Made by a program: the position numbers and the translations under genes
Shown here: positions 13,101 to 17,272 of the stretch, in pieces
Numbering within the stretch: the stretch's first letter is position 1
Layout: each line of letters starts with the position of its first letter
Assembly: GCA_002633005.1 (NCBI GenBank)
Contig: NMRA01000554.1
Span: 186,001-250,000, forward strand
Length of the DNA: 64,000 nt
Reading direction: 5' to 3'
DNA from: Phoronis australis
Lineage: Eukaryota > Animalia > Phoronida
The notes under the pieces: generated by a model
What the model was told of the DNA's origin: nothing
The model's database searches: none
What the model saw: the letters and a program-made list of their open reading frames with translations, nothing else

Positions 13101-16100
13101 ACTTATTAATTGAATTAAGGAATTAGGGTGAGAATTTATCTCTTTTCACAACTTTCTGTGTTCATGACCACAGAGACCTGAGGCGACTCGTAGCATCGGT
13201 TTTCAATGCCAACTGTCGTATGTATGTAGACGCACAACTCCCTTAGGATCAAAACTACGTTTTGTCTTCGTTTTCCCCAGCACCATTCTATCACAAGTAC
13301 ACCTCGTTGGCTCAATGTTATGGCGACTTTGTGAATGAAAGGACTGAGGGTATACGAAGCTGCTCTGTACCTGGCGGGGAATTCGATTTAATTGAAATCC
13401 CTTTAACCTTTGACCTTGGATAAATAGTAAAAAAATATCCACACAGTTGTGCAGTTCGAAGGTGGTTCTGCTAAGGGCTGTTCCAGCAAAATCTGTGTGG
13501 GAGGGGGGAAAGGCAACTGAAATAAAAATTTATGGGTGGTTGCGTTTGATTTAAATTCAAAATGGCTGGTGGTCGTACTTCAAAAAAATAAAAATTTACA
13601 GGTCGTTGTTGTTTCATTGGGCCATAAATGTTTGATGGTGGGTAATTTTAGTAAATTTTATAAACAATCCGCACAGAATCAAAAACTGAAACAAAAATGC
13701 AACTTGCAAAAAGCTCCGACTTTTTCACTCCCTTCACTCTCATCGGCATGCCCCTAACACCAGTTAACCACAGGTGCTCGAATTTCTCGATGGCTAATAA
13801 CCGTATGTTTTCTTAGTAATGAATGACGTTAGTGGTGATGGAGGAACAGATAAACTCAAGCGCCTGTGCAGTCAACCACAAGAACAAAAAAATTACGGGT
13901 GGTTGCATTTCAAACTTATAAAAAATTACGCGTGGTAGGCTGAAGAAATAAATGAAAAATATGGGTGGTGGGTGCGAAAAAAGGTGCCTTCCCCCTCCCA
14001 TACAGATTTTACTGGAACAGCCCTAAATCTTTTTTTCTCGCTACGCGGTATATATTTTGTATTTGAAGTGTCCCGAGAATTAGGATAAGGTATTTTGCTA
14101 GACACAAGTGAAGTATTGCAAAAATGGCCAATTTTTGTTAATAAGGTTGGAGATAACCTTAAGCATGAAGATTAACTGTAGCAGCTGAGATTGAGTTTCT
14201 TTGTAAAGGTTCAAGTTTCTGTGTGCAGGACTATTATTGAGGGTTACATCTAATTGCTGTTGTTTGCTTTACAGAATGCATTCATGTGCAGCGTTGCCTT
14301 TATGTTTCTTTTGCGCACGTATTACGGAAGTCTTACATGGAAATATTATACATGGGGTTGTTTAATCTTGAAATTTGTGTTGTTTGCTTCTTGAGGCAGA
14401 ATCCAGGAAAATCTTCCTGGTCGAAACGTTCTGTTCGTGTGTATGCTCTGCACTCTGTTTTTGTGTGTATGTTCCACATACTTTAATGTTCTACCCTGGA
14501 ATGTTGGTTGGTGACAGATTGAATTTTGTTCCCCACACTGAACTATGGAGATTTGAAAAAAACTTCAATCACCCACTTACAAGATATTGGATGTTGCAAC
14601 ATGTGGGTTGAAGTATTGTTTGCACTTAGGTAGCTGGGTTCCTTGTTACTTATCAATGTCGTCATAGTAACAAGGGCTGGGCTAAATTTAATTGACGACT
14701 TTGGTTTGAGGCTGTGCATGATTTCCGTCTCATTTAGCCTTCTAAAATACATCAGAAATCAATATTGTGGTCTTCATTTTGCTAGTTCACCAAGTGCCGT
14801 GTGTGTGAGTGCCTGCGGCTTTGTGGTATTCGTACGTACTAATTGGGTCATTTGTTTTCTGCGCCCAGATATGGTCGAGGGTACAGTGGGTGACATGTCG
14901 GTGCTCGGCATCACGGAGTCATTCCAAGTAAAGCGGCAGGTCCTGATGAGTGCCGCTGAGGCCGCGGAGATGATCGTACGCATTGACGACATCATTAGAG
15001 CAGCTCCTCGCCAGCGTCTGCCGGACACACCCCACTAAGCCCCTCCGCAAAGCTTTCTCGTGCTCGGCCATGTCCTCATTTGCACTTTCACATGCTAGGC
15101 TCGCTTGCGTGCTATAGTGATTGCCGCTGCCTGTCTGCCACACACTGATTGCTCGCTTCTCAAGCTGCACTGTCATTGTGTGACCATTGCTTGATCAACA
15201 ACTCAAGCTTATAACATTTTTCATGTTCAGTTGTTTTTTGTAGGCACTGCTATAGCTGTAAAAAGTTTTGTTGCCTGTGTTGTACTGGATTAGCAGAATT
15301 TGTTTCTTTTTGGTTTCTGTTTGGTCTTTGGTGATGGAGATCTTGCCCCTGCCGTCTCATTCGATATCAAAAGATTTCACATTTGTGCTGCAACAGTCGC
15401 TTATTAATGTAATGTCTGCTTCCTCTGTATTGAGCTGGGTTTGTGCACTTCCAAGATTCTTTTGCTCTGCAGATTTGTTGTAGGTTCAGCCTTCAGCGTA
15501 TGGTCCTTATTGTGCCAGTTTGGTGATTCAACCGAATGGTCTTGGCAGTTGCGGAATTTCTGAGTTTGTGCATTCTGAGAATTTTGTGTGAGCTATGATT
15601 GCATGGTTCCTTCCTAAACTTTGTATGCAGGTGCTCTTCATGGCGGTAACTAGCTAATCTTTGTACAAGTGTATAATCAGTTCCTTTTTTCGGACTTTCC
15701 ATAGTCATGGTATACGGTATATGCCTCACAGTTTCTCCCTTATTTTTATTGTTGACACATTTCTAGAATGCTTGGCTGCTTCGACTATCAGACAACCAAG
15801 AGATTTGTTCTTGAAATTGTCTTGGAGATCAAATAATTTTAATTGGTTTCGCTGTTCCTGTAAAAATCCATGTGGGAGGGGGGGGAGCAATTGAAATAAA
15901 AATTTATGGGTGGTTGTGTTTGATTTAAATTCAAAATGGCTGGTGGTCGTACTTCAAAAAAATTAAAATTTACAGGTCGCTGTTGTGCCATAAATGTTTG
16001 ATGGTGGGTAAGTTTTATAAACAATCTGCACAGAATCAACAACTAAAACAAAAACACAACTTGCAAAAAGCGACTTTTTCACTCCCTCCAATCTCCCCAT

Positions 16101-17272
16101 CGGCATGCCCATAACACCAGTCAACCACAGGCGCTCGAATTTCTTGATGGCTAATAACTGTATATAAGAAACATGTTTTCTTAGTATTGAATGACGTCAG
16201 TGGTGATCGAGGAACAGCAATACTCAAGCGCCTGTGCAGTCAACCACAAGAACAACAAAAAATTACGGATGGTTGCATTTCAAAGTTACAGGTGGTGGGC
16301 TGAAGAAATAATTGAAAAAAACAGGTGGTGGGTGCGAAAAACAAATGCCTTCCCCCCTCCCATACAGATTTTACTGGAACAGCCCTAAGTTGTTTAGCTC
16401 ATCAGGCAGAATGGAAAAGTTTCAAGCTGTATTTCTCCCCATTTTTTGCTGTCAAAGTAAAATTCAATTACTTTTATGTAAAATTGATCTCAAAATTTTC
16501 CTCACGACAGGACTGTTGTTTCCAAGAACATACACTTCCTCAACAGGTTAAGAAATGCGTCGATTGGCCAACCCTGAAATGGGAAAATGGCGCGCAGGAC
16601 TTACATTCATCAACAGGTCAATCACGAGACACGACCATGACCATTTCTCACAAGTACATCACAGATCAGCTGCAGGTTTTAGCTCTTCAGTTATGAGCTT
16701 TAAGTGAGACACAAAACAATTCATAAGGCTGTGTGTTGCAAAGCTTTTGTCATGCGTACAGTATTTTTCAAAAAAAAACTTTTGAATTTTATCAATGAAA
16801 ATCTGGTAAATTTGAAAACAAAATTTTGCCATCTCTCATCAAAGGCACATTTTAAACTGTTTCTGCCATATTTCAGTTTTGAGAAAAAATTGGGAACGAG
16901 GATAAATTGATTGTAATGTATTTTCGCATTCTCATTAAAACTACTACCGTATATTTACCAATTATTTTGATAACTACTGTATGTCTGTGCTTTTCCACCA
17001 CTTGCTTTTCCGCTCTATACAGTGGATGTCAGCTGTACCCCATAGGTGGCGCTTATACTGTATTGTTGTCAGTTATTGCATGCCCTCTGTTGTGCTATTC
17101 AGACATGAATGAGGGGACTGTAGGCGACATGGCCGTCCTGGGCATCACCGAGTCGTTCCAAGTGAAGCGTCAAGTCCTGATGAGTGCGTCCGAGGCCGCA
17201 GAGATGATCGTGCGTGTCGATGACATCGTCAGAGCAGCGCCGAGACAACGCCAGCCGGACCACTGCATGTGA
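3062..17272 (+). CDS. CCT2: T-complex protein 1 subunit beta (CCT-beta), spliced, about 530 aa with either last exon
   Basis: Exons joined at GT-AG with consistent phase: 3062-3064 (ATG only), 5728(or 5734)-5790, 6456-6521, 6896-7007, 7211-7287, 7774-7886, 8783-8909, 9211-9387, 10427-10554, 10893-11104, 11461-11601, 11816-12019, then 14869-15038 or 17103-17272 (total 1593 nt). Chaperonin motifs [34 protein letters not shown]2-typical [47 protein letters not shown]. Confidence 0.96.
3403..3417. promoter_or_regulatory. Heat-shock element (nTTCnnGAAnnTTCn) in CCT2 intron 1
   Basis: TTC-ca-GAA-ta-TTC at 3404-3416, about 340 nt downstream of the CCT2 ATG. Confidence 0.5.
3558..3821 (+). mobile_element. 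Single arm of the 31586-32176 element ending in hairpin + CTAG
   Basis: Aligns by eye with 31930-32130. GC-rich stem CATCGCCTCTG/CAGAGGCGATG (3777-3809), then CTAG (3818-3821). Confidence 0.6.
4087..4116. repeat. (TA)n microsatellite
   Basis: Interrupted TA run. Confidence 0.8.
4810..4995. mobile_element. Small inverted-repeat element (MITE-like)
   Basis: CCACTAAATAACACCT...GGTAAAAG pairs with CTTTTACC...AGGTGTTATTTAGTGG. Confidence 0.5.
6161..6309. mobile_element. Tc1/mariner-type short MITE
   Basis: Right end CGAGGTTTGACTG|TA, degenerate left end TA|CAATTGAACCTTG. A related CAGTCAAACCT end occurs at 38813. Confidence 0.45.
8623..8770. repeat. About 36-bp minisatellite, about 4 units
   Basis: TCTGGACATACTCTCTGTCCTGGTCTACACTCTG-like units of 34-38 bp, ending about 12 nt before CCT2 exon 7. 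Confidence 0.85.
9864..10188. repeat. GC-rich 17-bp minisatellite (consensus near CCATACTGCCGTGACGA), about 19 units
   Basis: Direct tandem units with no spacers, in CCT2 intron 8. Confidence 0.9.
12220..14158. mobile_element. TTAA-flanked (Kolobok-like) non-autonomous element in CCT2 intron 12
   Basis: TTAA|GGTTATCTCCAACC ... GGTTGGAGATAACC|TTAA, a perfect 14-bp TIR. No coding capacity seen. Confidence 0.75.
13475..14023. mobile_element. PIF/Harbinger-type MITE, copy 1 (nested in the TTAA element)
   Basis: TAA|GGGCTGTTCCAG...CTGGAACAGCCC|TAA, 3-bp TAA target duplication, multiple copies in the window. Confidence 0.8.
14869..15038 (+). CDS. CCT2: CCT2 alternative terminal coding exon A
   Basis: Acceptor ttttctgcgcccAG with a TACTAAT branch-point match at 14837-14843. 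Phase 1 fits exon 11816-12019. Encodes (N)[55 protein letters not shown]. Confidence 0.85.
15851..16385. mobile_element. PIF/Harbinger-type MITE, copy 2 (between CCT2 exons A and B)
   Basis: Same family and orientation as 13475-14023. Right TIR CTGGAACAGCCC|TAA is intact and the left end is eroded. Confidence 0.78.
17103..17272 (+). CDS. CCT2: CCT2 alternative terminal coding exon B
   Basis: Acceptor ctctgttgtgctattcAG, phase 1. Encodes (N)[55 protein letters not shown]. Confidence 0.88.

Follow-up and report, generated by a model that had tools for sequence, protein, structure and literature searches.

TRiC is treated as a fixed machine of eight subunits, and where two versions of one subunit exist, as with CCT6A and CCT6B, they are whole-gene paralogues. 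Here we consider another subunit, CCT2 (TCP-1 beta), which in the phoronid Phoronis australis would come in two versions by way of a duplicated last coding exon within one gene rather than by paralogues. The locus lies in a 64,000-nucleotide stretch of genomic DNA (NCBI GenBank assembly GCA_002633005.1, contig NMRA01000554.1, positions 186,001 to 250,000 of the forward strand), referred to below as the window; all coordinates are those of the window.

Proteins that end in one or the other of two duplicated exons have been catalogued in human: the accessible text of PMC8373072 and PMC9741552 counts 77 C-terminal cases among 236 events of tandem duplicated exon substitution. The CCT2 exons, A and B, are a member of this class in an unexpected gene: they are homologous, arranged in tandem in one gene, span at least 8 residues and serve as in-frame alternatives to one upstream exon. 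They resemble the human C-terminal substitutions, as far as these are described in that text, in being homologous tandem 3′ exons used either/or, in the conservative nature of the changes and in the massing of differences in the exposed tail. Further typical traits of the class are conservation of both exons between distant species and use confined to certain tissues, neither of them defining, and detection of both isoforms as peptides; at CCT2 the use of A and B depends strongly on the sample. The human events are, however, attributed there to alternative use of poly(A) sites, whereas the RNA read depth at CCT2 points to one shared 3′-end. CCT2 appears neither in the main texts of the two papers nor in one supplementary file of PMC9741552; full gene tables may lie elsewhere. 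A search of titles and abstracts, with most subscription papers outside its scope, found no case of a duplicated last exon of CCT2.

In KRAS, exon 4B is spliced into the untranslated region (UTR) of the 4A message; the stretch from A to B in CCT2, in contrast, stays unspliced. The two genes are alike in that an essential protein has two homologous last coding exons swapping a short C-terminal tail (KRAS as described in the accessible part of PMC9882654). For exon 4A of KRAS, shuffling of an NRAS exon is the origin proposed in the same part, and its conservation spans 450 million years, while exon A of CCT2 appears to be a local copy. The 3′ variable region of Drosophila PGRP-LC also has duplicated 3′ modules chosen by splicing and sets a precedent for RNA pairing that directs this choice; according to the portion of PMC6191721 available, its competing pairings are conserved, whereas CCT2 offers only transposon arms as a candidate pairing across exon A. 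Finally, CCT6B is a testis-specific second version of a TRiC subunit (available parts of PMC8176918 and PMC9113939), so that CCT6A/CCT6B, as forms A and B of CCT2 would, give two kinds of TRiC ring by swapping one subunit's version.

Our reading of the locus, to which we assign a probability of about 0.72, is that CCT2 has two tandem last exons, that the donor at 12019 is joined to either acceptor, that the choice flips between RNA samples, likely by cell type, stage or condition, and that both messages share a 3′-end. Exon A (14869–15038, plus strand, tail RLPDTPH) has the proximal acceptor and exon B (17103–17272, plus strand, tail RQPDHCM) the distal one. Both are 170 nt long and in phase 1, with an AG in front and a stop codon of their own (TAA in A, TGA in B), as the initial annotation, made from the sequence alone, had stated. 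With junction codon and stop included, the 57 codon pairs comprise 25 that are identical, 23 that differ synonymously and 9 that change the amino acid; the nine changes are those named before, and leaving out the stop reproduces the earlier figure of 22 synonymous-only differences in 56 codons. Ungapped nucleotide identity is 74%, compared with 44% for the best of 200,000 random pairs of 170-nt windows.

RNA data bearing the same species label were taken from four runs of two studies, X1 in the form of contigs and X2–X4 as raw reads (18–19% of each run was used); the runs carry coded labels only. The junction 12019>14869 (A) was crossed by 4, 4 and 15 reads in X2, X3 and X4, and the junction 12019>17103 (B) by 21, 33 and 1 reads, respectively; both are GT..AG and both were covered by reads with many start points. 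X1, which belongs to the other study, yielded a contig for junction A only. The A:B ratio of X4 differs from that of X2 and X3 taken together with p = 1.6e-9 (p = 0.70 for X2 versus X3). We thus observed a near-complete switch: X4 has almost all form A, X2 and X3 have mostly form B. The sums of A and B junction reads (25, 37 and 16 in X2, X3 and X4) are close to the counts for the preceding constitutive junction (21, 28 and 13), therefore A and B make up essentially all of the spliced message; an A-to-B splice was absent from the joints listed, a set to which 23 weaker joints do not belong. The earlier expectation that both junctions are expressed, with one or the other used, was thereby borne out in reads. 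CCT2 is essential; with X4 nearly all A and X2 and X3 mostly B, it follows that each form likely makes a working protein.

The same reads bear on the idea that one exon is an assembly artefact or comes from a paralogous locus. The window does contain several near-identical duplications beside N positions; copies A and B are, however, only 74% identical with changes biased to synonymous ones, and reads join one donor to both exons and extend over the DNA that separates them. Since A and B both splice to the donor 12019, misassembly from a paralogue is excluded, and an artefact of any kind has, in our estimate, a negligible chance. The initial annotation was also right that no N stands at the exon junctions (the nearest are at 985 and 32349) and that, within the window, the last exon is the only one of CCT2 to be duplicated.

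Both exons are under purifying selection, as the initial annotation had proposed. Over 55 codons (Nei–Gojobori) the proportion of differences was pS 0.69 at synonymous and pN 0.12 at nonsynonymous sites, with distances dS 1.9 and dN 0.13; over the core, the first 49 codons, pS was 0.75 and pN 0.06. Synonymous sites are near saturation while pN is low, therefore both copies are constrained; free drift of either copy for half of that divergence would be expected to destroy it. Judged by saturation, which gives no date, the duplication appears to be old.

Of the 49 core residues, 44 are the same in A and B. No more than 42 agree with A in any of 228 distinct homologue segments, and a single segment reaches 44 with B. 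In a tree of 184 rows and 49 columns, the rows being distinct ungapped segments from 232 of 250 proteins, A and B are sisters (SH-like approximate likelihood ratio test, SH-aLRT, 84) on branches of 0.153 (A) and 0.026 (B). B carries the common residues (V517 in 228/228 segments, H after D in 108/184), and its tail ending PDHCM is found in other invertebrates too. The residues of A are rare among homologues: I517 occurs in 0/228 distinct segments and in 2 of 80 metagenome loci, T after D in 3/184, and the P is rare as well. On these comparisons B looks ancestral and A derived.

Predicted proteins of birds, Ciona and Pocillopora diverge directly after AAPR, which suggests an old intron at this point, absent from both A and B; as both copies lack it, the duplication would postdate the intron loss. 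In the gene models concerned (P0128, P0140, P0157 and P0296, from birds, Ciona savignyi and Pocillopora damicornis) the frame continues past AAPR and the true CCT2 tail is missing, an annotation error that recurs where the last exon is small.

The closest full-length matches are gastropod and nemertean proteins (85–87%; for exon B the best identity is 85%), which would make the animal probably a spiralian, and three protein searches found no close relative, the best full-length identity being 86.7%. A two-copy last exon was present in none of 80 metagenome loci (80 of 215 relatives, 17 of 64 parts, mostly short or distant contigs); two loci showing two pieces have one copy divided by an intron. 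Among 291 usable proteins there was no pair of one gene with two tails, and where two proteins agreed over 200 upstream residues yet ended differently, which happened once, the cause was a Ciona read-through model. Other candidates for a second case were ruled out: in the RefSeq isoform X1/X2 pairs of Glandiceps and Pomacea both members have one tail; in Ostrea X2 and one Biomphalaria model the last segment is simply missing; and the coral proteins with tails DHPHP and DRCHP differ at 7–28 upstream positions, hence come from different species. We regard these negatives as weak.

How the message ends can be followed in read depth. Sense-strand depth was unbroken from A through B, with 7–43 in unique bins between the exons versus 0–1 in upstream introns. 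In X4 it stayed at 23–52 across 16400–17253 with no step at the B acceptor 17103; in X2 and X3 it rose from about 10 to 38–51 inside B. In all three runs it ended near 17440 (under 1 in the bin 17437–17497), and an X1 contig, 16700–17208, passes the B acceptor unspliced. Continuous sense depth and this contig point to a 3′ UTR of form A of about 2.4 kb (15039–17440, plus strand), holding a repeat element and the unspliced exon B. For form B the 3′ UTR is short, about 0.17 kb; it and the shared 3′-end region fall within 17273–17470 (plus strand), as marked by the fall of depth and by hexamers; AATAAA does not occur there, the variants being CATAAA at 17311 and AATAGA at 17445.

If A and B were classical alternative last exons, each would be followed by a separate poly(A) site, and form A would be forced by cleavage downstream of A. 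Duplicated 3′ exons usually work in this way according to the accessible text of PMC8373072, and AATAAA at 15895 and ATTAAA at 15962 do stand downstream of A. Both hexamers, however, lie inside the repeat element; depth does not drop past either of them, the A-dominant X4 is continuous to about 17440, and no pile-up of read starts is listed between A and B. We consider this route very improbable. Choice of the 3′ splice site with a shared 3′-end is the simplest reading. Of the mutually exclusive use by 3′ splice site and polyadenylation choice suggested in the initial annotation, the splice-site part is supported and the poly(A) part is not, depth being unbroken to near 17440.

Two further features of depth were seen in this region. 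Sense depth in the intron at 14276–14843 was 1–4 in the B-dominant X2 and X3 versus 0–1 in X4, so that skipping of A may go with late removal of the last intron. A second X1 contig, 17314–17760, runs about 300 bases beyond the end seen in X2–X4 and has ATTAAA at 17689, so X1 may use a second, later 3′-end.

The history and working of the locus could then be as follows. B would be the original exon, and a copy with its acceptor but without a poly(A) site of its own would have been inserted upstream after the loss of the AAPR intron; selection since then would have held both copies open. Use of the near acceptor would give form A, in which reading stops at 15038 and exon B, retained without splicing in a message that extends to the common 3′-end, would become untranslated sequence; use of the far acceptor would give form B with the short UTR. 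The outcome would be two CCT2 proteins of equal length and the same fold, with a tail that projects into the chamber and there likely touches tubulin, and each protein would go with a 3′ UTR of its own.

As to the proteins, A and B have equal lengths and differ in five mostly conservative residues of the equatorial domain and in four residues of the tail. Net charge does not differ between the tails, and both contain one His; a Cys is present in B and an extra Pro in A. Residues S496 and R516, whose role in CCT2 we take from the accessible part of 10.64898/2026.01.22.701072, are kept in both exons. We dropped a difference in the LC3-binding VLIR motif as a candidate, A and B being identical at its presumed positions, 503–505 and 513–515; PMC11521882, PMC13612084 and PMC12081695 supplied no residue numbers for it.

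Several points weigh against the reading of a regulated choice between two acceptors with one shared 3′-end. The samples come from four runs of two studies, are coded and differ in genotype, which makes an inherited cause possible; junction B is nearer to the 3′-end, so absolute ratios may lean towards B. The 3′-end is placed by depth and not by 3′-end or long reads, and a minor site after A would escape; with intron depth of 1–4 before A in X2 and X3, part of the A-to-B coverage may stem from precursor that is still unspliced. The tree is built on 49 columns, and neither A nor B is on a starred branch. Tails vary widely between species (Cys in 117/184 segments; DHPHP and DRCHP in corals), and those of A and B are identical in charge. 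X1 has A>G at 14994, changing Ile 42 of exon A to Val, the residue that exon B has; it is either a polymorphism or a conversion between the copies. The protein differences between A and B could be close to neutral.

The genotypes can be weighed further. An A:B ratio set by inherited differences near an acceptor, that is, by a splicing polymorphism or cryptic lineages rather than by cell state, would fit the different genotypes of the runs in the stretch from exon A to exon B, and low depth in the intron hides variants near the A acceptor. In X4 three variants lie in the region that is unspliced in form A: a 3-base deletion at 17063 (11 of 35 reads), and differences at 16926 (11 of 23) and 16645 (28 of 47); X2 and X3 have no variant reads there. 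The reference-type B acceptor region is thus found in both states: X4 has two alleles, both in form A, and X2 and X3, free of the variants, have mostly form B. This two-allele pattern weakens an inherited cause of the switch, and the long time for which both exons have been under purifying selection agrees with each animal using the two. We therefore hold an inherited ratio to be unlikely.

A stronger alternative, to which we would give somewhat less than even odds, accepts that the regulated switch is real and supposes that selection keeps it for the swap of 3′ UTRs (about 2.4 kb versus 0.17 kb, with effects on stability, location or translation), the protein ends being interchangeable. In its favour are the size of the UTR difference, the variable position or conservative nature of five of the nine changes, tails that lie inside the between-species range, and an I/V polymorphism in exon A at position 42. 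On the other hand, A has rare residues (I517, T after D) and the longer branch, and a second poly(A) site alone would presumably change the UTR without a second coding exon. If the tails are interchangeable, this is an ordinary case of a duplicated exon in an unexpected gene. The locus also shows a housekeeping gene in which, with no need of another poly(A) site, a swap of protein ends goes together with a 3′ UTR about fourteen times longer or shorter.

A role of the disordered TRiC tails has been proposed from structures. One could speculate, and rather tentatively, that the TRiC chamber is retuned by splicing: a Cys-bearing ancestral tail or a Pro-rich, Cys-free one would be presented according to cell state at the site that in human engages beta-tubulin, the rings would differ in substrate handling, and each would have its own 3′ UTR programme. 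Were it so, rings with different substrate handling would come from one CCT2 gene. Two CCT2 forms that take each other's place between samples, with hardly any difference outside the last strand and the tail in the chamber, would make a natural test of whether the tail tunes folding.

Returning to the acceptor choice between A and B, we looked at the sequence around exon A. Pyrimidine content is 0.76 at each of the two acceptors, and A has CTAAT at −30. The intron before A holds an inverted-repeat element resembling a miniature inverted-repeat transposable element (copy 1, 13471–14026, plus strand; 34-nt terminal inverted arms of 94%, hairpin z −6.2, high-copy in reads), and copy 2 lies downstream (15851–16389, plus strand), and its 3′ arm (16350–16389) could pair across exon A with the 5′ arm of copy 1 (13471–13510), the complementarity being 93% over 40 nt. 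The copies are 84% identical over 569 nt (13477–14026 versus 15851–16388), with a further copy at 46791–47084. The family as a whole (13471–14026, 15851–16389 and 46086–47159) is high-copy, has terminal inverted repeats of 34–40 nt and gives abundant RNA reads from both strands.

The initial annotation saw no similarity between the introns flanking the exons; this does not hold for the elements, of which both introns contain a copy, and it does hold for the remaining flanks, which do not align (best E 0.07 from element to exon and 0.02 after the stop, word size 7). Co-duplication of the element with the exon was rejected, since the two copies of the element still agree at 84%, whereas alignment fails for the DNA that separates each from its exon; for the same reason the two elements are best read as later, separate insertions. 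Pairing of the arms across exon A could favour skipping of A; as the 5′ arm of copy 1 has a nearer partner in its own element, and the elements would be younger than the exons, such pairing may be at most a later modifier. Only the repeat-derived arms stood out around exon A in the search for conserved docking or selector sequences, and there was no Rfam match in 12000–18000.

The upstream part of CCT2, shared by both forms and on the plus strand, comprises ten coding exons, 5734–5790, 6456–6521, 6896–7007, 7211–7287, 7774–7886, 8783–8909, 9211–9387, 10427–10554, 10893–11104 and 11461–11601, each bounded by AG..GT in a single open frame, and the penultimate exon, 11816–12019, whose phase 1 donor at 12019 stands before GT and is common to forms A and B. 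Junctions from 10554 onward are supported by RNA reads. With A or B as the last exon these eleven exons give a frame of 528 codons and 0 internal stops; the model starts at the 5734 exon, the exon with the start codon being outside it. Searched against solved structures, the exon A peptide matches residues 480–531 of subunit beta with E 1.6e-22 and subunit gamma with E 2.5e-4, and nearly all named matches of the CCT2 exons in protein searches are to subunit beta; by these matches the gene is identified as CCT2 and not another CCT subunit. A degenerate G+C-rich tandem repeat occupies 9863–10187, within a CCT2 intron.

Elsewhere in the window, near-identical tandem duplications (92–100%) are found at 1–1950, 30274–34926 and 40668–43546; they adjoin single N at 985 and 42102 and an 819-base run of N at 32349–33167, and look like haplotype or scaffolding artefacts. 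Exon-like open frames on the minus strand of 21600–29000, converging on CCT2, resemble what we take to be an ArfGAP2/3 gene. Leucine-rich-repeat exons at 38290–42811, presumably AMN1-like, include one inside the 40668–43546 duplication, and an intron holds, at 39093–39959, frames on both strands that we assume to be THAP-like.

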